Shown: positions 19,399 through 34,800 of the stretch, in pieces
How the letters are laid out: each line of letters starts with the position of its first letter
How positions within the stretch are numbered: the first letter of the stretch is position 1
Translations under genes and position numbers: made by a program
Notes under the pieces: model-generated
What the model was told of the DNA's origin: nothing
Databases searched by the model: none
The model's input: only the letters and a program-made list of their open reading frames with translations
From: an uncultured Verrucomicrobiae bacterium
GTDB taxonomy: Bacteria; Verrucomicrobiota; Verrucomicrobiia; Chthoniobacterales; UBA10450
Length of the DNA: 64,000 nt
Assembly: GCA_963753675.1 (NCBI GenBank)
Contig: CAVWCZ010000006.1
Span: 173,426 to 237,425, forward strand
Direction: 5' to 3'

Positions 19399-19653
19399 TT
19401 GATGGCTTACAAGCTCCACGACACCGCGCATCTTGAAAAACGCGCCCGCGATCGCGGATTCACGATTGAGCAGGCAACCCTTGCGATCAATGAACCTGCG
19501 TCCATTCTCAAGACTCCGCCACGCAAGGGAAACCACGGCGGCTTCATCTGGTTGTTCTTTCGCGCGTTTGAAAGTAGAATCTTGGTAGTCGTTGCCGAAG
19601 TAAAAGCTAATGAGTGCTGGATCATCACCGGATACTGGGAAGAGCGGCATTAA
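19399..19653 (+). CDS. DUF4258 domain protein (toxin-like)
   Basis: 84 aa. HLEKRARDRGFTIEQ and VVVAEVKANECWIITGYW match the DUF4258 pattern. Confidence 0.65.
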   Translation: MMAYKLHDTAHLEKRARDRGFTIEQATLAINEPASILKTPPRKGNHGGFIWLFFRAFESRILVVVAEVKANECWIITGYWEERH

Positions 19654-19942: not shown

Positions 19943-20066
19943 CATCAATTCGTCACTGGCTTGCCACGCCACAGCCTTGTGCGAAGGCTGGGTGACATGT
20001 CACTCATCACTGCCTACAAACCGCGTGTCCGCCAATGGACGGACCGGCCGTGGCGAGGCGCAAGCT

Positions 20067-20930
20067 TTACACGGTACAAACCGCGTGGCGCAGCTTTACA
20101 CGGTTGCAACGCTCGAGTAACCGCGGCGCTTCCATCCGCTCCGCCCAGGCCGCGAATGCCGGCGTCGGACCGCGCCAGCGCAACGTCTCGACCTTCTTGA
20201 AGAGCGGCGCGTCGGTGCGCAGCGTCGCTAAATTCTTGAAGAGCAGTGCGAGATCGCGCTGTTTCCCGAGAACGTTTGACGGAAATTTTTCGATCGGACC
20301 GTAGCGGTTCAAAAGCTGGGCGGCGGTCCGTGCGCCGATGCCAAGGATGCCTGGGTAGCCGTCCGCCGCATCGCCTACGAGCGCGAGCAGATCCGGAATG
20401 AGCTGCGGGCTCACGCCAAATTTTTCGCGTATCCCAGCCGCATCTCGGATGATTTTGCGCCGGCCATCGATCTGCACCACGCGCGTCCCGCGCACGCATT
20501 GCGCCAGATCCTTGTCCGGCGTCCAGATGGCGACGCGCTCGACCTTCTTGTCCTTCGCCGCAAGATGCGCGGCCGAAGCGAGCGCATCATCGGCTTCGAG
20601 CTCGATCATCGGCCAGAGGACCACGCCCATCGCCGCGAGCGCCTCCTCGAGCGGATGAAACTGCGCGAGCAGCGCGGGCTCGATACCGGCCCCCGTCTTG
20701 TAGTCCCGCCAAAGCCGATTGCGAAACGACTCGATCACGTGATCGGTAGCGACACCAAGGTAAATGGCGTCGCTATCCAGCATCTGAAGAACGGTCTGCA
20801 ATACGCCGACGACCGCGCCGTAGGGGCGGTCGCCGCCGCGTGAGGCGGAGCCTTTTACGCGGGTAAACCGGCGCAACCCGTAAAAGTGGCGAAACAGTTC
20901 GTAGGTACCGTCGATAAGATTGATGATCAC
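20067..20930 (-). CDS. 5-prime-3-prime exonuclease (FEN / PolI N-terminal domain family)
   Basis: MIINLIDGTYELFRHFY..., DHVIESFRN, ELEADD, LVGDAADGYPGILGIGARTAAQLL H3TH motif. Confidence 0.85.
   Translation of the reverse strand: MIINLIDGTYELFRHFYGLRRFTRVKGSASRGGDRPYGAVVGVLQTVLQMLDSDAIYLGVATDHVIESFRNRLWRDYKTGAGIEPALLAQFHPLEEALAAMGVVLWPMIELEADDALASAAHLAAKDKKVERVAIWTPDKDLAQCVRGTRVVQIDGRRKIIRDAAGIREKFGVSPQLIPDLLALVGDAADGYPGILGIGARTAAQLLNRYGPIEKFPSNVLGKQRDLALLFKNLATLRTDAPLFKKVETLRWRGPTPAFAAWAERMEAPRLLERCNRVKLRHAVCTV
20836..20862 (+). repeat. REP2 hairpin (CCGCGTGAGGCGRAGCCTTTTACGCGG) inside the exonuclease CDS
   Basis: 27-nt unit with stem CCGCGT/ACGCGG. On the minus strand it encodes TRVKGSASRG in frame. 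Confidence 0.8.
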
Positions 20931-20944
20931 AACCCGTTAGGATA

Positions 20945-21012
20945 AACCGCCAAGACCGCGTGAGGCGAAGCCTTTTACGCGGTAGAAGTGACGGAAGAGT
21001 TCGTAGAGCTCT
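20945..21012 (-). pseudogene. remnant of an exonuclease N-terminus (with its own REP2 copy at 20956-20982)
   Basis: Minus-strand translation ELYELFRHFYRVKGFASRGLGGLS* parallels GTYELFRHFYGLRRFTRVKGSASRGG of the intact gene 15 bp away. Confidence 0.6.
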
Positions 21013-29153: not shown

Positions 29154-29921
29154 TTAATGAAGCAACTTCTCAGGGAAATTCGCGTTCTGTTCACGTTGCA
29201 GAATGCGCCGCTGACGCCAGCGCAACGTCCTGCCCGGCTTCGTCGGGTCCCAGCCTTTCGGATTCGGCAGGACAGCTGCCAGCATGGCCGACTGCTCCCT
29301 CGTTAGGCCGCGCGCGCTGACGCCGAAATAATGCTGTGAGGCGGCTTCGACCCCGTAGATCCCCCGCCCCATCTCGATCACGTTTGCATACAGCTCCAGG
29401 ATGCGCCGCTTCGGCAACAGTATTTCCATCCAGATGGTGTAGTACGATTCCAGTCCTTTCCTGATCCAGGAGCGGCCCTGCCAGAGGAAGATCGACCGGG
29501 CACATTGGTTCGTGATCGTGGAAGCTCCACGAACCGGTTTCCCTTTCCGCTTCGCTTTTTTCATCGCGAGTTCCATCTCCTTCCAGTCAAAGCCCTCGTG
29601 CTGGAAGAATCGCTGATCTTCCGAAATCCATAGGTGCTTCAGGAACATCTCAGGCATCTGCGGCAGACCGATCCAGTGGTAGCGGAGCGGAGCCTTCGGC
29701 CCTTCCGAGAACGTTGCGCCGATCTGCTCGATCAACATCGGCAGCGTCCACGGAGGATTGACGAATCGCACCGTCGCCACCTGCATCGCCGGGATAAGGA
29801 GCAAAACCACCATCGGAATCAAAACCCATTTCCAGCGGCCAAAAAAACCGCGTGGACGAAGTCTTTTACGCGGTTTACGCGGTTTAGGCGTCGGCATCCT
29901 ATCGCTCCGTGTAAGTCTCAT
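29154..29921 (-). CDS. mtgA: monofunctional peptidoglycan glycosyltransferase (GT51)
   Basis: ISEDQRFFQHEGFDW, RGASTITNQCARSIFLW, RKGLESYYTIWME, ILELYANVIEMG motifs. Confidence 0.88.
   Translation of the reverse strand: MRLTRSDRMPTPKPRKPRKRLRPRGFFGRWKWVLIPMVVLLLIPAMQVATVRFVNPPWTLPMLIEQIGATFSEGPKAPLRYHWIGLPQMPEMFLKHLWISEDQRFFQHEGFDWKEMELAMKKAKRKGKPVRGASTITNQCARSIFLWQGRSWIRKGLESYYTIWMEILLPKRRILELYANVIEMGRGIYGVEAASQHYFGVSARGLTREQSAMLAAVLPNPKGWDPTKPGRTLRWRQRRILQREQNANFPEKLLH
29848..29882 (+). repeat. REP2 variant inside the mtgA N-terminal coding region
   Basis: ccgcgtggacgaagtcttttacgcgg plus an extra tttacgcgg. On the minus strand it encodes PKPRKPRKRLRPRG. Confidence 0.65.
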
Positions 29922-30047
29922 AATAAATAATCCGGGACCTCGCGATTTCGTGGAGAGTGAAGCGCGGTGTGGTAGGCACTTTGAAGCCTCTCAACGCAAA
30001 AACAGCGTTTGCTCGAAACTCCGTTCCCAGCCAGAATCAGCAGCGTC

Positions 30048-31790
30048 ATGGTGATGGAAAACTCTTCCTCGAACGATCGCGCAAAATTTAAAGTGCAAAT
30101 TGCTCTCCGAAAACCCTTGCTTCGTCTCGCCTTCGGTCTCCTCCTGACAACTGCAGCACTCGCCGTTCAAGTTAAAGCGGCCTCCCAGAAGGCTTCCGAA
30201 CCTGAGTCCAAGGATAAGCCGACGCCTACTGCAACCCCCAACTTCAAGCCCGAATCCATCACCAGCACGGGCACCGTGACTGTCGAAGGCAGCCCGATCG
30301 AGTATCAAGCCGTTGCCGGCACACTCGTCGTGCATCCCAAAGGCTGGGACGACGCAGCCTTGGCCGGGGACCGGCAAAGCAAAAAGAGCGAGGAAAATGA
30401 GGAAAGCGGGGAGAGCGAACGTGGGCCTAACGAGCATAAGAATCCGACGGCCGAAGCTTCGATGTTCTACGTGGCCTATAACAAAAAGAACGTGGCACCG
30501 GAGAAACGGCCCGTGACGTTCCTGTTCAACGGCGGACCTGGTTCTTCGACAGTCTGGCTGCACATGGGCGCCTTTGGACCTCAGCGGGTGATCACCGCCG
30601 ACGACACGCATACGGCCGCAGCGCCCTATCAAATTGTTAATAACGACTACAGCCTGCTGGACGCGAGCGATCTGGTATTCGTGGACGCTCCCGGCACGGG
30701 CTTCAGCCGCATCGCCGGCAAAAACAAGGAAAAAGAATTTTACGGCGTGGACCCGGACGCGCACGCCTTCGCGGAATTCATCGTGGCGTATCTCAGCAAG
30801 TATGGGCGCTGGAACTCGCCCAAGTACATTTTCGGTGAAAGCTACGGAACGCCGCGCTCTGCCGTGCTGGTGAACCTGCTCGCACAGGAATACAACGTCG
30901 ACCTGAACGGCGTGATCATGCTTTCGCAGATCTTGAACTTCGACTTGAGCGTGGACGACCCGGAAGGCAACCCCGGAATTGATTTGCCCTACATTGTGGC
31001 GTTACCGACCTACGCCGCCAGCGCCTGGTACCACCATAAGTTGCCCGGCCCGAATTCTCCCGCCGCGCTCGAACCTTTCATCAAAGAAGTGGAAGAGTTC
31101 GCCACGCACGATTATGCGCGCGCGCTGGCGGAAGGAGCGAGGCTACCGAAACCCGAACGCCAGGCCATCGCCCAAAAACTGCACGGTTACACCGGCCTTC
31201 CCGTCAGCTATATTCTCAAGGCCAACTTGCGTATCGACGGCGGCGAGTTTGCAAAGAACCTCGAGGACGATACTGACACCACGACCGGCCGGCTCGATAC
31301 GCGCTTCTCAGGCCCCACCATGGATCCGCTGAGCAAGAAGGCCGACTACGATCCGCAAGCCGCCGCCATCAGTTCGGCCTATGTCTCTGCTTTCAACGAC
31401 TACGTGAGGAAGTCTTTGCGCTACGGTCAGGACAAAACCTATCGGCCTGAGATTCCGTTGTGGAAGAGTTGGAATTTCCAGCATCAGCCGCCGGGGGCGG
31501 AGCGGCCGTTGCCGCAGTCGACCAACACCATGCCGGATTTGGCTACCGCCATGAAATACAATCCGGACCTCAGAATTCTTCTAACGGGCGGTTACTTCGA
31601 TCTGGCCACACCCTATTACGAGGGCTGGTACGAAATGCACCACCTGCCAATCCCGGAGCGGCTCCAGGACCACATTGAATATCGCTATTATCAATCAGGC
31701 CACATGGTTTACGCCCATCAGGAATCTCTCAAGGCTCTACACGATGACGTGGCCGCGTTCATCCATTCGACCGATCACCTCGGCAAATGA
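30048..31790 (+). CDS. S10 family serine carboxypeptidase, secreted
   Basis: NGGPGSSTVWLHMGAFGP and GESYGTPRS active-site motifs. Start at ATG 30048 within ORF 30009..31790. Confidence 0.85.
   Translation: MVMENSSSNDRAKFKVQIALRKPLLRLAFGLLLTTAALAVQVKAASQKASEPESKDKPTPTATPNFKPESITSTGTVTVEGSPIEYQAVAGTLVVHPKGWDDAALAGDRQSKKSEENEESGESERGPNEHKNPTAEASMFYVAYNKKNVAPEKRPVTFLFNGGPGSSTVWLHMGAFGPQRVITADDTHTAAAPYQIVNNDYSLLDASDLVFVDAPGTGFSRIAGKNKEKEFYGVDPDAHAFAEFIVAYLSKYGRWNSPKYIFGESYGTPRSAVLVNLLAQEYNVDLNGVIMLSQILNFDLSVDDPEGNPGIDLPYIVALPTYAASAWYHHKLPGPNSPAALEPFIKEVEEFATHDYARALAEGARLPKPERQAIAQKLHGYTGLPVSYILKANLRIDGGEFAKNLEDDTDTTTGRLDTRFSGPTMDPLSKKADYDPQAAAISSAYVSAFNDYVRKSLRYGQDKTYRPEIPLWKSWNFQHQPPGAERPLPQSTNTMPDLATAMKYNPDLRILLTGGYFDLATPYYEGWYEMHHLPIPERLQDHIEYRYYQSGHMVYAHQESLKALHDDVAAFIHSTDHLGK
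31731..31790 (+). repeat. direct repeat, left copy (functional 3-prime end of the S10 gene)
   Basis: 57 of 60 nt identical to 32201-32260. Confidence 0.9.
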
Positions 31791-32200
31791 CCGCGTAAAA
31801 GGCTTCGCCTCACGCGGTCGATTGTGACGTCGGGACATCATAGGTTAGCATAGGTTAGAGCCGCGTGAGGCGAAGCCTTTTACGCGGGAAATCGTTTGAG
31901 ATAATGGCGCAATTGAGCGCGCAGGAAACGCCGCCCGGCCCCGCTCTTCAGGAATCTCTCGCGGCCCTCGGCGTCTTCGCGCTCCGTGTAGGCCTCGTAA
32001 TAAATCAGCTTCCATGGACCGCGCGATTTTGTTGCGAACGAAGCGCCGCGCCTATGCTGCGACAATCGCTTCTTCAAGTCTGTCGAGAAACCAATGTAGA
32101 AACCGAAGTCGCTTTCCGATCTCAGTACATAAACATAGAACACGCATCAGGATAAAACGACGAAACCGCGTGAGGCGAAGCCTTTTACGCGGAATCGTTT
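31791..32200. mobile_element. hairpin-flanked GIY-YIG mini-cassette
   Basis: Bounded by the 60-bp direct repeats. REP2 copies lie at 31791-31817 (inverted), 31861-31887 and 32166-32192. Also contains a 10-bp tandem duplication at 31839-31858 and a single GIY-YIG ORF. Confidence 0.65.
31880..32143 (-). CDS. GIY-YIG nuclease family protein (UPF0213-like, 87 aa)
   Basis: MFYVYVLRSESDFGFYIGFSTDLKKRLSQH carries the GIY-YIG signature. ...EAYTEREDAEGRERFLKSGAGRRFL. Confidence 0.88.
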   Translation of the reverse strand: MFYVYVLRSESDFGFYIGFSTDLKKRLSQHRRGASFATKSRGPWKLIYYEAYTEREDAEGRERFLKSGAGRRFLRAQLRHYLKRFPA

Positions 32201-32260
32201 AAGGCTCTACACGATGACGTGGCCGCGTTCGTCCATTCGACCGATCACCTCAGCAAATAA
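32201..32260 (+). repeat. direct repeat, right copy (displaced 3-prime end of the S10 gene)
   Basis: Encodes LKALHDDVAAFVHSTDHLSK* versus LKALHDDVAAFIHSTDHLGK* at the real gene end. Confidence 0.9.
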
Positions 32261-32327
32261 TCCCGATCAGCCGCGCTTGGAGCGGGGTGGGATCTTGCGA
32301 ATCTGTCAGATCGGTAATACTATATCG

Positions 32328-32570
32328 ATGATGAAGACGATATCGCTGAAGTTACCCGCGTCGTTGGCGAACTGGCTGGCGAGGCGCGCCAACGAGCTCG
32401 GACGTTCACGCTCCGATCTGGTGCGCCAGGCGCTCGAGGAGCAGCGTCAGGGCAGGAACAGCAGGGGCGAAAAGTCTTGTGCCGAGTTGATGGGGGAGTT
32501 TGGCGGCGTCTTTCGAGGGCCGCGCGATTTATCCACTAACCCGAAACACATGCGCGATTTCGGAAAGTGA
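32328..32570 (+). CDS. ribbon-helix-helix (CopG/VapB-like) antitoxin
   Basis: MMKTISLKLPASLANWLARRANELGRSRSDLVRQALE. The stop overlaps the GTG start of the PIN gene. Confidence 0.75.
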   Translation: MMKTISLKLPASLANWLARRANELGRSRSDLVRQALEEQRQGRNSRGEKSCAELMGEFGGVFRGPRDLSTNPKHMRDFGK

Positions 32571-32977
32571 GACGGACTTTGATCGATAGCGGGCCGTTAG
32601 TCGCCTTTTATTCTACGCGTGACCAGCATCATGCCTGGGCCTTTGCGCAATTAGACGCGCTGCGGCCTCCGCTGTTGACGTGTGAACCGGTTTTGACCGA
32701 AGCCTGTTTTCTGCTTCAGCGCGGAGGTGGCCGCCCAGCTGCAATCATGCGAGCTGTCCGGGAGCGGGTGATTCAAATTGCATTTGATATCGAGACGGAA
32801 GCCGCCTCCTTGGAAGTTTTAATGGAACGCTACTCCGATGTGCCGATGTCGTTAGCGGACGCCTGCCTGGTTAGACTGAGTGAACTTAATTCCGATTGCC
32901 GTGTCCTCACACTCGATTCTCATTTCACCCGTTATCGCAGGCACGGCCGTCAGGTAATTCCGTTGCTCATGCCATGA
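32567..32977 (+). CDS. PIN domain toxin (VapC-like)
   Basis: LIDSGPLVAFYSTRDQHH ... LADACLVRL ... VLTLDSHF carry the typical PIN acidic residues. Confidence 0.8.
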   Translation: MRRTLIDSGPLVAFYSTRDQHHAWAFAQLDALRPPLLTCEPVLTEACFLLQRGGGRPAAIMRAVRERVIQIAFDIETEAASLEVLMERYSDVPMSLADACLVRLSELNSDCRVLTLDSHFTRYRRHGRQVIPLLMP

Positions 32978-33134
32978 AATCCTTTCAGTCGAACGAGGCC
33001 GCCCGGGTTTACGCGGTCTACCGCGACAGCCGCGTGCTCGCGAACGCTTTCGGAGTTTACGCGGCCGTCGACCAGGTGCACGATCATTTGGGTCAATGTT
33101 AGATCTCGTGGCTGCGCTAGGCGGCGCCTAGCAA

Positions 33135-34800
33135 GATGGATTGCAATCCTCTCTGCGGAATGTCAAAATATTTGGACGCGACCCCAATTGCCCAGTACGA
33201 AATGCAAGAAAAAAGGACTGATAAACATTAAGGGCGCTGGCGAAGGAAGGTTTCCTTCCGGTAGAAGCGTGTTGTCTCGAAAACAACAGCAGCAATTAAC
33301 CGAAAGGAAACCAAGTAATGAAGGAGTCAGTATGCGCAGGAATCGACCTGCATGGCAATAATCTAATGATTGGAATTGTAGATGAGAGTGGGCGGCGATT
33401 AAAAGAGCAGAAGTTAGGCTGTGATCTCGTTGCGGTGGACCGCTTCCTCAGTCTCTGGCGAGGGCGACTTCAGAGCGTAGCGGTGGAATCGACCTATAAC
33501 TGGTATTGGCTGGTGGACGGTCTGTGTGCTCTGTCCTATCCGGTGAAGTTAGCCGATCCGGCCCAGATTGAGCAGTATGGCGGGATTAAACATGCGGATG
33601 ACAAAAACGACGGGTTCTTCCTGGCCGAGTTACAGCGGCTCAATATTCTGCCAACCGGTTACATTTACGATCCGGGACTGCGGCCGGTGCGCGATCTTCT
33701 GCGGCGGCGCCTGGGTCTGGTCCATCAGCGCACCGCGCTCATGCTCAGTTTCCAGAGTCTCTATGCCCGAACCACGGGCCAAAAGCTGACTCTGAGCCGG
33801 CTCAAAGGGATGGATCCCGGCGAGACCAAAACGCTCTATGAGCATCCGGCCAATTGTTTAATCGCCCAAGTGCAAAAAGAGCACATCGATAAGCTGCGCC
33901 AGAGCATTGAGTTGATCGAAAAGACAGTGCTTAACTGCGCACGGGAGCTGCCTTGTTATACAAAACTGCTGAGCCTACCAGGAGTAGGCCGCATTCTGGC
34001 CATGACCATCAGCATGGAAGTGGGCGAGATCAGCCGGTTCAAAACCGCCGGCCACTTTGCCAGTTATTGCCGGACGGTTGATGCCAAACGCATCTCCAAC
34101 AACAAAAAGAAAGGCGAAAACAACCGCAAATGCGGCAACAAATATCTGGCCTGGGCATTTGTCGAAGCGGCTAACTTTGCCAAGCGTCATCACGAGCATT
34201 GCCGCAGGTGGTTTGATCGCAAGGCGGGCCGAACCAGCTCGATCATCGCCACCAAGGCGTTAGCCTGCAAGCTGGCCAAAGCGGCCTGGTACCTGATGAG
34301 TGAAGGAAGCGATTATGATCCAGAGCGGATGTGTCCGGGCCTAACTGGATCACCGCCAAAACTCAAATTTGTGAGAACCGCTGTCAGCCAGCAAAAAGGG
34401 GTTGGCGAAAAACCACCAGGACTGATTGGAGGCCGCGGTTCTCCGCAATTTCCAAAACTAAAGCGTTAAACCGACGGAAAAGGTTTTGAAGGCGATTCGA
34501 CCAAGCCGTGAATCTCAAAAAGGGTTGAGCAGCACTGCCCACAATCCAAAGAAGCAGCGTAAGTCACAATTCTTTAAAACTGAATGAATACGCGCTTGGC
34601 ACTGAATGTTTTCCGGATCCCGGCCAAAAGCGGGATTGGGCGCCGCAGCCCCCCAACGGCTGCAAAGCGCTAGAACCAGATGGGTGACTGAACGGATCGC
34701 TAGCCAATCCGAAATCAAGCCAAAGAAATAACAGGCTCGAATCAACTTACTTCAAAACCGAAATTGAAGACACGCAAGACTAACCGATAGACACAAATCG
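33135..34800 (+). mobile_element. IS110 family insertion sequence (boundaries approximate)
   Basis: A transposase gene plus low-coding flanks. A palindrome gctaggcggcgcctagc lies at 33113-33131 just outside the left flank. Confidence 0.5.
33318..34469 (+). CDS. IS110 family transposase
   Basis: GIDLHGNNLMIGIV N-terminal DEDD domain and LLSLPGVGRILAMTI...FASYCRTV C-terminal domain. Confidence 0.9.
   Translation: MKESVCAGIDLHGNNLMIGIVDESGRRLKEQKLGCDLVAVDRFLSLWRGRLQSVAVESTYNWYWLVDGLCALSYPVKLADPAQIEQYGGIKHADDKNDGFFLAELQRLNILPTGYIYDPGLRPVRDLLRRRLGLVHQRTALMLSFQSLYARTTGQKLTLSRLKGMDPGETKTLYEHPANCLIAQVQKEHIDKLRQSIELIEKTVLNCARELPCYTKLLSLPGVGRILAMTISMEVGEISRFKTAGHFASYCRTVDAKRISNNKKKGENNRKCGNKYLAWAFVEAANFAKRHHEHCRRWFDRKAGRTSSIIATKALACKLAKAAWYLMSEGSDYDPERMCPGLTGSPPKLKFVRTAVSQQKGVGEKPPGLIGGRGSPQFPKLKR

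Follow-up and report, generated by a model that had tools for sequence, protein, structure and literature searches.

Few non-coding features are as common in bacterial genomes as repeats of the repetitive extragenic palindromic (REP) type, and the only established partner enzyme of such repeats is, to our knowledge, the HUH tyrosine transposase RAYT (REP-associated tyrosine transposase). Here we describe a 402-bp cassette, consisting of a single gene for an 87-aa GIY-YIG nuclease bounded by copies of a 27-nt hairpin (HP), which lies at positions 31791-32192 of a 64,000-nt stretch (hereafter the window) of contig CAVWCZ010000006.1 from an uncultured Verrucomicrobiae bacterium, directly behind an S10 serine carboxypeptidase gene. 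The cassette is polymorphic among close strains, occurs at different targets, and is tied to a structured 27-nt repeat that is mobile independently of it. The combination is found repeatedly throughout the phylum Verrucomicrobiota and looks like a previously undescribed counterpart of REP/RAYT, and no pairing of a GIY-YIG protein with a palindromic repeat was found in the literature searched, in which most subscription journals were not covered.

In the REP/REPIN-RAYT systems (Nunvar 2010, PMC2817692; Bertels & Rainey 2011, PMC3116915), a short imperfect palindrome of 20-40 nt is dispersed through the genome, inverted doublets of it fold into a long hairpin (the REPIN), and inverted repeat copies lie on either side of the partner gene; these systems are inherited mostly vertically and persist for a long time. 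The same traits are found here, with the inverted flanks formed by the copies at 31791-31817 and 32166-32192, and the formal likeness to the REP/RAYT layout that a first-pass annotation of the window had pointed out holds for the palindrome, the doublets and the inverted flanks. However, the partner in this case is a GIY-YIG hydrolase rather than an HUH Y1 transposase; it is multi-copy, often decayed and moves with the repeats, and the hairpins are frequently located inside coding sequences. Neither the hairpin nor its flanks carry the GTAG/CGTC tag that serves as a criterion for REP sequences (Di Nocera 2013, PMC3733652), and only a pyrimidine at position +1 is conserved. With a multi-copy nuclease that cannot join DNA, the analogy is formal rather than mechanistic.

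Free-standing GIY-YIG homing endonucleases (the T4 Seg proteins with their "intronless homing", and I-TevI) are also selfish genes that sit between or at the ends of conserved genes. They share with the present system the presence/absence polymorphism in close strains, a divergent tract in the flank of the adjacent gene, and a mobility that is expected to proceed via host repair of nuclease-made breaks. Unlike these enzymes, the nuclease described here has only 87 aa and no DNA-binding domain, its gene is bounded by hairpins and accompanied by a long target duplication, and the empty S10 allele has no hairpin to recognise; we do not count it among them. Rickettsia palindromic elements (RPEs) insert in frame into genes without destroying them, as the hairpin does here in an exonuclease gene and in mtgA, but RPEs are 100-150 bp long and have no known cognate enzyme, whereas the present repeat has 27 nt and a candidate partner gene.

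The window cassette and its nuclease

Both boundaries of the cassette are HP copies. In the orientation of the gene, the order is HP, a leader of ~22 nt, the GIY-YIG open reading frame (ORF), a second HP, a spacer of ~35 nt and an inverted HP. The 5' HP (32166-32192, plus strand), which is one terminus of the cassette, is in the sense orientation on the GIY-YIG gene strand and is separated from the start codon by a 22-nt leader (32144-32165, minus strand) of a type (ttttatcctga) that is also found at 20931-20955, before the exonuclease gene. The nuclease gene itself (31880-32143, minus strand) has a GTG start, encodes a minimal UPF0213/Slx1-like domain, and ends with a TAA stop inside the internal HP (31861-31887, plus strand), which is again sense on the gene strand and overlaps the last codons and the stop. 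The minus strand of the spacer (31818-31860) holds ATGTCCCG; at the other target of the cassette this serves the exonuclease gene as its start codon, and in the window it is retained but now useless. The spacer also contains a perfect 10-bp tandem duplication (cataggttag x2, 31839-31858) that is specific to the window, since the related loci L120 and L124 have one copy. (L-numbers denote the related loci or stretches that were compared with the window.) The terminal HP (31791-31817, minus strand) is inverted relative to the gene and begins 0 nt past the S10 stop, a placement that recurs in L029, L051, L120, L122 and L124.

The HP sequence, CCGCGTGAGGCGAAGCCTTTTACGCGG, was matched exactly at 31791-31817 (minus), 31861-31887 (plus), 32166-32192 (plus) and 20956-20982 (plus), and with one mismatch at 20836-20862 (plus), against a chance expectation in the window of 0.00 (100 shuffles). 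The first-pass annotation had placed and oriented the three cassette hairpins, the tandem duplication and the 87-aa gene in the same way, and all of these stand. The same architecture was present in five independent assemblies (the window, L029, L120, L121 and L124), and an assembly artefact was rejected on these grounds.

The protein belongs to the GIY-YIG superfamily (PF01541, E = 2e-14, 54 bits against a cut-off of 22.6), and residues Y5, Y16-I-G, R26, H30 and E50 are invariant or nearly so. Its best matches in both sequence and fold are the stand-alone UPF0213/YhbQ proteins, a family defined by a single domain of about 90-100 aa and by similarity to BH0048 and EF2693, and we assign it to that family: a phmmer search of the PDB returned the UPF0213 proteins 1zg2 (E = 8e-7) and 1ywl (E = 1.6e-4), and an AlphaFold2 (AF2) model (pLDDT 85), with its elements in the order beta-beta-alpha-alpha-beta-alpha-alpha, gave 1zg2 as the top Foldseek match, with the nuclease domain of Slx1 also found and I-TevI and UvrC next. 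No assigned function or repeat partner was found for UPF0213 proteins. No NCBIfam model matched the 87-aa protein, and an exact look-up of its sequence returned no record. Slx1 is a structure-specific nuclease that acts on branched and stem-loop DNA, and its activity would fit a hairpin substrate. However, the Foldseek alignment covers the nuclease domain of Slx1 only (TM 0.6 query-normalised, 0.2 target-normalised), and both the C-terminal zinc finger (RING/PHD-like) and the Slx4 partner of Slx1 are absent here, which sets the protein apart from Slx1 proper.

Among 27 intact copies, the median pairwise dN/dS (ratio of non-synonymous to synonymous substitution rates) was 0.13; the nuclease is thus under purifying selection and looks functional. 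Many further copies are frameshifted or interrupted, as expected for a selfish multi-copy gene. The 64 kb of the window contain one intact copy and one remnant, and 2-3 copies were found within 8 kb in L029, L061 and L073. The remnant (29902-29990, minus strand; HRASLSTKSRGP / RIIYYETYTER) is a decayed, frameshifted GIY-YIG gene between mtgA and the S10 gene, with tblastn and nucleotide matches to GIY genes elsewhere. In L029, two GIY-YIG copies (~480-585 and 2317-2585) are broken at the same codon region, between ..GRR and FLRAQL... The interrupting insertions are related to each other and ~90-270 nt long (ttgaaactcg...gctccattc), and have the appearance of another small mobile element, lodged within the nuclease gene.

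Empty and filled sites at the S10 gene

The S10 gene (30009-31790, plus strand; Pfam PF00450, E = 5e-16) is intact, and its TGA stop abuts the cassette. The first-pass annotation had described a 60-bp recurrence of its 3' end on the far side of the cassette. Positions 31731-31790 and 32201-32260 do indeed agree at 57/60 positions, the first copy ending in TGA and the second in TAA, but the length had been underestimated. A repeat search extended the pair to 31721-31795 versus 32191-32265, and the true duplication is 70 nt, comprising the in-gene copy E1 (31721-31790, plus strand) and the displaced copy E2 (32191-32260, plus strand), which are identical at 64/70 positions and abut the hairpin directly. 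This length follows from the orthologous S10 genes, which show that GGAATCGTTTAAGG of the second copy is S10 coding sequence (QESLK). An alternative in which aatcgttt, after the hairpin at 32192, was taken as a remnant of the GIY C-terminus (KRF) was ruled out, as this too is S10 coding sequence. E2 has kept the ancestral TAA stop and is contiguous with native downstream DNA, of which a remnant (32261-32290, plus strand; tcccgatcagccgcgcttgg...) is homologous to the sequence that follows the stop in the empty sites L125, L128 and L123.

The C-terminal half of S10 was used to scan metagenomes for close orthologues. Identities of the S10 orthologues were 95.6% in L029 and up to 97% in L120-L124. 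Empty sites were found in L123 (97% identity), L125, L126 and L133 (95%) and L128 (90%). In these loci the gene ends with ...HLGK-TAA, the stop runs directly into tttgccggcggtcagccgcgcttcgcg..., which is homologous to the window from 32261 onward, and there is neither a hairpin nor a nuclease gene. Such uninterrupted alleles in close relatives are what the first-pass annotation had proposed to look for. The window's cassette was present in L120, L121 and L124 (97%) and in L029 (95.6%). In these filled sites the displaced S10 end is 33 nt long in L124 (33/33 identical) and L120 (one mismatch) and 29 nt in L029, followed by native downstream sequence, and the length of the direct repeat thus varies between 29, 33 and 70 nt over the filled sites. 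No relative among those compared had the duplication without the cassette, the pattern that had been named in advance as speaking for an unrelated local duplication.

The earlier suggestion that the cassette had replaced the 3' end of S10 and supplied a new one could not be established. The two copies in L124 are identical over 33 nt, and in the window E1 and E2 are equally distant from the relatives, with neither copy closer. The duplication therefore looks to have been made at insertion and to have been trimmed or to have diverged later: it looks like a target duplication formed on insertion and retained at variable length, rather than a gene end that the cassette brought along.

Strains that are otherwise nearly identical diverge in the last ~300 nt of S10 (window ~31490-31790 and L120-L124), a hot spot with for example 0-2 versus 15-18 differences. 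The filled site L121 and the empty site L123 differ at 18 positions in the last 300 nt of the gene, against 2 in the 600 nt upstream (p = 2e-7). The hot spot was seen in all pairwise comparisons, including those of filled with filled alleles, and the last 200-300 nt of S10 mark a recombination tract that ends at the cassette site. The cassette copies themselves also recombine, as seen from the mosaic GIY N-terminus in L121 and from rearrangements in L122 and L026. In L122, the cassette at the S10 site is cut off within the GIY-YIG gene (~4175 onward) and joined to a homologue of window positions 19399-19653, a small gene beside the exonuclease gene. This junction speaks for a rearrangement between copies of the cassette or of the hairpin.

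The native homology downstream of S10 stops at 32290, and from 32291 onward the homology is to a ribbon-helix-helix (RHH)-PIN module in L036. The corresponding RHH antitoxin and PIN toxin pair in the window (32328-32977, plus strand) directly follows the displaced S10 end and has 92% DNA identity to L036 1277-1981, where it occupies a different context next to mtgA; thus, this toxin-antitoxin module also appears to be mobile.

The hairpin family, its candidate nuclease partner and other targets of the cassette

The hairpin was sought in one genome per species with a near-exact pattern in which three positions were left free, and at least 119 stretches were listed. Nearly all of the listed stretches are from Verrucomicrobiota (Chthoniobacterales/Udaeobacter, Opitutales, Limisphaerales, Puniceicoccaceae and Akkermansiaceae). 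The predicted fold consists of an outer stem (CCGCGT/ACGCGG), an asymmetric internal loop (AAAA/TC), an inner stem of 3-4 bp and a 3-nt loop. A single HP folds as DNA with z = -3.6, and the arrangement of HP, spacer and inverted HP folds as a 27-bp stem (-39 kcal/mol, z = -9.1). At the inner-stem pair that was left unconstrained by the scan, 148/153 copies have G-C, A-T, G-T or C-G (p~6e-56), while the free loop base varies, and a sister hairpin, type 2 (CCACGT...ACGTGG), shows covariation in the outer stem relative to type 1 (CCGCGT..). Such covariation shows that the hairpin is a real, selected structure. The base at +1 after the hairpin is a pyrimidine in 204/207 copies. The hairpin occurs as singles, as inverted doublets and in tandem arrays; in L035 (7378-7528), five copies are arranged head to tail with a 31-nt period and 4-nt spacers, and in L053 and L089 hairpins are embedded in simple "atcccgt" repeats. 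Within orthologous exonuclease genes the hairpin is cleanly present or absent as a 27-nt unit with a target duplication of 0 nt, which shows that the hairpin itself is mobile.

Over the whole window at the gathering threshold, Rfam matched only a thiamine pyrophosphate (TPP) riboswitch (RF00059, 11810-11910, plus strand, 67.6 bits) and left the hairpin unmatched, and a scan of 31700-32300 at permissive settings returned nothing beyond a match at chance level (E = 0.43). The hairpin thus does not belong to any RNA family described so far. Only 3 hairpin matches were found in 2.9 million viral contigs, so phage carriage is not a main route of spread.

A GIY-YIG homologue directly adjoins the hairpin in 36 of the 119 listed loci that were ascertained through the hairpin. 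On the gene strand, the sense hairpin S, CCGCGTAAAAGGCTTCGCCTCACGCGG, ends 20-24 nt before 33/41 GIY-YIG starts, where 0.02 would be expected (p~1e-99); the distance is 23 nt in 21 cases, 22 nt in 7, 20 nt in 3 and 24 nt in 2. The enrichment of hairpins next to GIY-YIG paralogues that followed from the first-pass annotation is thus plainly seen, and paralogues bracketed by inverted hairpins, as it had also envisaged, were found in the window, L108, L085, L024, L026, L059 and others. The common layout begins with S and a leader of 20-24 nt, continues with the ORF, whose stop may be covered by a further S, and closes with a spacer and an inverted type 1 or type 2 hairpin. The HP-GIY architecture was equally present in loci that were ascertained through the protein only (L200-L204, L205 and L206; 7 loci, 3/3 contexts). 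In 65 S10-orthologue loci of more distant lineages (~380 kb), neither the hairpin nor GIY-YIG was found.

Matches to a RAYT query sequence were present in only 2/119 listed loci and none was adjacent to HP. In L023, the one clear RAYT-like gene found (1485-2035) has inverted, GTAG-tagged 26-nt repeats of its own (CTGTAGAGGCAGCCGTGTCGGCTGCA) on either side, and a GIY-type hairpin is found in the same 8-kb stretch, so that two repeat systems coexist and HP is not the repeat of a classical RAYT. GTAG repeats have been reported in the verrucomicrobium O. terrae, where they represent a different family (Di Nocera et al., PMC3733652).

The same cassette was found at other targets. Window positions 31791-32192 align with L026 6501-6884 at 79% identity over 408 nt, including both terminal hairpins, and in L026 the cassette directly adjoins codon 2 at the 5' end of a 5'-3' exonuclease gene. 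In L026, L027 and L044, an ATG in the spacer and the inverted HP are in frame with the exonuclease gene (M..TNKPREAQPFTR-IVHL...), and at this target the cassette demonstrably supplies the start codon. Further contexts are beside tRNA-Gln, within the exonuclease gene (L073/L110 and L116) and in L205, and some cassettes inside the exonuclease gene are accompanied by a deletion of its codons.

In the window, the exonuclease gene (20067-20930, minus strand, GTG start) carries an HP in frame at codon ~24 (20836-20862, plus strand), which adds RVKGSASRG. This hairpin is a clean 27-nt insertion, absent in the orthologues L026 and L029 and present in L004, and a similar clean 27-nt presence/absence was seen among orthologues at codon ~50. 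Directly upstream of the GTG, an HP (20956-20982) and a 25-nt leader together occupy 20931-20982 (minus strand). The same HP and leader precede the exonuclease gene in L036, L069 and L105, and in L115 there is a hairpin with a different leader. Degenerate HP copies are found at 20048-20103, and the exonuclease C-terminus (..RVKLRHAV..) is encoded by one or two degenerate hairpins both there and at L200 ~2440-2490, which suggests an old insertion that was absorbed into the ORF. In mtgA, an HP variant with a compensatory inner stem (GAC/GTC) lies in the 5' coding end of the ORF (29848-29873, minus strand); the mtgA orthologues of L036, L037, L092, L101 and L012 have HP at the same position, and in many genomes the gene reads through the hairpin.

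Fragments of three gene ends, the 5' ends of the exonuclease gene and of mtgA and the 3' end of S10, were found at ectopic sites, each abutting a hairpin. One displaced exonuclease 5' fragment (20983-21012, minus strand; ..ELYELFRHFY) differs from the active copy at synonymous positions only, and a longer version of it is found in L029 (1261-1371). Another (33030-33117, minus strand), consisting of the gene's own 5' untranslated region and MIVHLVDG, is truncated by an HP-like 35-nt hairpin (33030-33064); it matches L029 1231-1284 and has multiple copies in L025, L116, L109 and L093. About 200 nt from this fragment and its hairpin-like element lies an IS110-family transposase gene (33318-34469, plus strand). 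In Pseudomonas, IS110 elements are reported to target REP hairpins (PMC12288879).

Possible mode of movement and its implications

On balance, we lean towards reading 31791-32192 as a selfish cassette that is mobilised by the action of its nuclease on the hairpins, together with host repair. In this scheme, the UPF0213/Slx1-like nuclease would recognise an extruded or single-stranded hairpin by its invariant outer stem and AAAA/TC loop, and would nick or cut at the hairpin base. Host break repair, by end joining, fill-in of staggered breaks or ectopic templated repair between hairpins, would then insert hairpins, the cassette as a whole or gene fragments adjoining a hairpin at new sites. At the S10 gene, the cassette would have inserted right after the stop and duplicated at least the last 70 nt, leaving S10 intact and pushing the old end downstream. 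Insertions at gene ends or inside genes would be tolerated, and could supply starts, because 27 nt correspond to nine codons, and a start codon and leader come with the unit. The variable junctions, ectopic fragments and flank mosaicism fit repair-mediated mobility better than transposase-mediated mobility, which also matches the fact that a hydrolase cannot join DNA. The broader proposal, of a phylum-wide 27-nt hairpin family propagated by a dedicated minimal GIY-YIG nuclease, and hence a second, HUH-independent origin of the REP/REPIN-RAYT lifestyle, is one that we put forward more tentatively, as a possibility that falls just short of an even chance.

The junctions themselves do not conform to the classical types of element. 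Their outcomes range from clean (0 nt, as for solo hairpins) through the 29-70-nt duplications at S10 to deletions elsewhere. Inverted 27-nt termini, as in insertion sequences (IS) and miniature inverted-repeat transposable elements (MITEs), are present, but neither the fixed-length duplication nor the encoded transposase of these elements was found. Penelope-like retroelements, which have a GIY-YIG endonuclease, and IS1634 make variable duplications of tens of bases that are attributed to widely staggered nicks. The likeness in variable-length target duplications provides a lead only, and neither a reverse transcriptase nor a DDE transposase is present here.

Several points weigh against mobilisation by the nuclease. 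No GIY-YIG gene was found within 8 kb at 83/119 listed hairpin loci, so that the action would need to be in trans. The apparent invariance of the hairpin sequence is partly built in by the near-exact scan pattern, and the co-distribution of hairpin and nuclease was counted over the listed stretches. The 87-aa GIY-YIG domain has no recognisable DNA-binding module and is incapable of strand transfer, and the proposed mechanism leaves the 33-70 nt duplication unaccounted for. That the nuclease acts on the hairpin at all is something we infer, and the fixed spacing of 20-24 nt could instead mean that the hairpin serves the gene as a promoter or regulatory part.

Three rival explanations were considered, all of which we rank below nuclease plus repair. 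The GIY-YIG gene might be a selfish lodger that lands or survives in the spacers of hairpin doublets, which would serve as safe havens, while the hairpins are spread by another enzyme or a host process. The protein is a simple hydrolase and most of the listed hairpins are far from any GIY-YIG gene, as would be expected in that case, and the tRNA-Gln site (beside an ABC-ATPase gene) seems at first to present both states: L114 (2946-3388), L048 and L102 have a hairpin, GIY-YIG and a type-2 hairpin, whereas the orthologous site in L064, L084 and L072 has only a hairpin doublet with a 20-50 nt spacer. However, L064 retains 8 nt of the leader and 12 nt of the 3' end of the gene; the GIY-YIG gene was therefore deleted there, and this "empty" doublet is a deletion derivative rather than a naive target. 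Clustering of ORFs near hairpins, a crude test in which hairpin-encoded peptides link unrelated ORFs, gave no transposase-like cluster and no other recurrent nuclease or transposase ORF, IS110 had no match in the hairpin loci, and the RAYT-like gene has its own GTAG repeats. The move to the S10 site, moreover, involved the cassette as a unit, terminal hairpins included, into an allele that was hairpin-free. A lodger is thus unlikely, and the alternative in which the cassette is a miniature integrative element is highly improbable. There, the S10 3' end would be the att site, the recombinase would be encoded elsewhere, and the 70 nt would represent attL and attR, with the in-gene copy derived from the element. 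Direct repeats of a gene 3' end around an insert that leaves the gene intact are the classic layout of tRNA- and gene-end islands, and the window copies do differ at 6/70 positions. Nevertheless, no integrase or other recombinase is encoded in or beside the cassette, the same cassette is found at unrelated targets without a shared att sequence, the repeat length differs between genomes, and neither copy is phylogenetically foreign.

The remaining alternative takes the hairpins as structural or regulatory elements useful to the host (mRNA-end stabilisers, bidirectional terminators or a portable promoter/operator), with UPF0213 as a housekeeping repair nuclease that is regulated via them and the duplications as by-products of ectopic recombination. 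The fixed distance to the GIY-YIG start, the position of hairpins 0 nt after the stops of several genes (S10, mtgA) and the clear recombination between cassette copies agree with this. In addition, in many leaders (e.g., L026 6528-6550, L059, L114 and L200) TAGAAG, TAAAAA or TAGAAC follows the hairpin loop TTCGCC at a distance of 17 nt and precedes the ATG by ~8 nt, and the loop and leader box could be a candidate -35/-10 pair for a nearly leaderless mRNA, one that was uncalled by the promoter scan. A scan of 31600-32450 for promoters and terminators called none, there is no T-run after the hairpin, and the hairpin is not a canonical intrinsic terminator. Hairpins are also found within coding sequences in either orientation. 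Unlike a housekeeping gene, the GIY-YIG gene occurs in several copies, which are often decayed, and strains of 97% identity differ in its presence, and the clean 27-nt insertions require an insertion mechanism rather than recombination. We therefore regard a purely host-serving role as improbable.

If mobilisation by the nuclease is correct, the lifestyle of a repeat plus a resident enzyme would have arisen more than once, with different chemistry. It would provide a first function for the widespread UPF0213 family and a concrete candidate substrate for UPF0213/YhbQ, and would define a route by which, through a hydrolase and host repair, tiny repeats can enter genes in frame, provide start codons and leave gene ends duplicated. 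The 87-aa protein and a 27-nt oligonucleotide suffice to test the system directly. It would also show that selfish DNA can occupy essential-looking genes without being lethal, through an element of nine codons that donates a start codon and duplicates a gene end. Udaeobacter-like soil Verrucomicrobia are among the most abundant soil bacteria, and movement of this kind would explain the fragmented assemblies and local rearrangements seen in their genomes.

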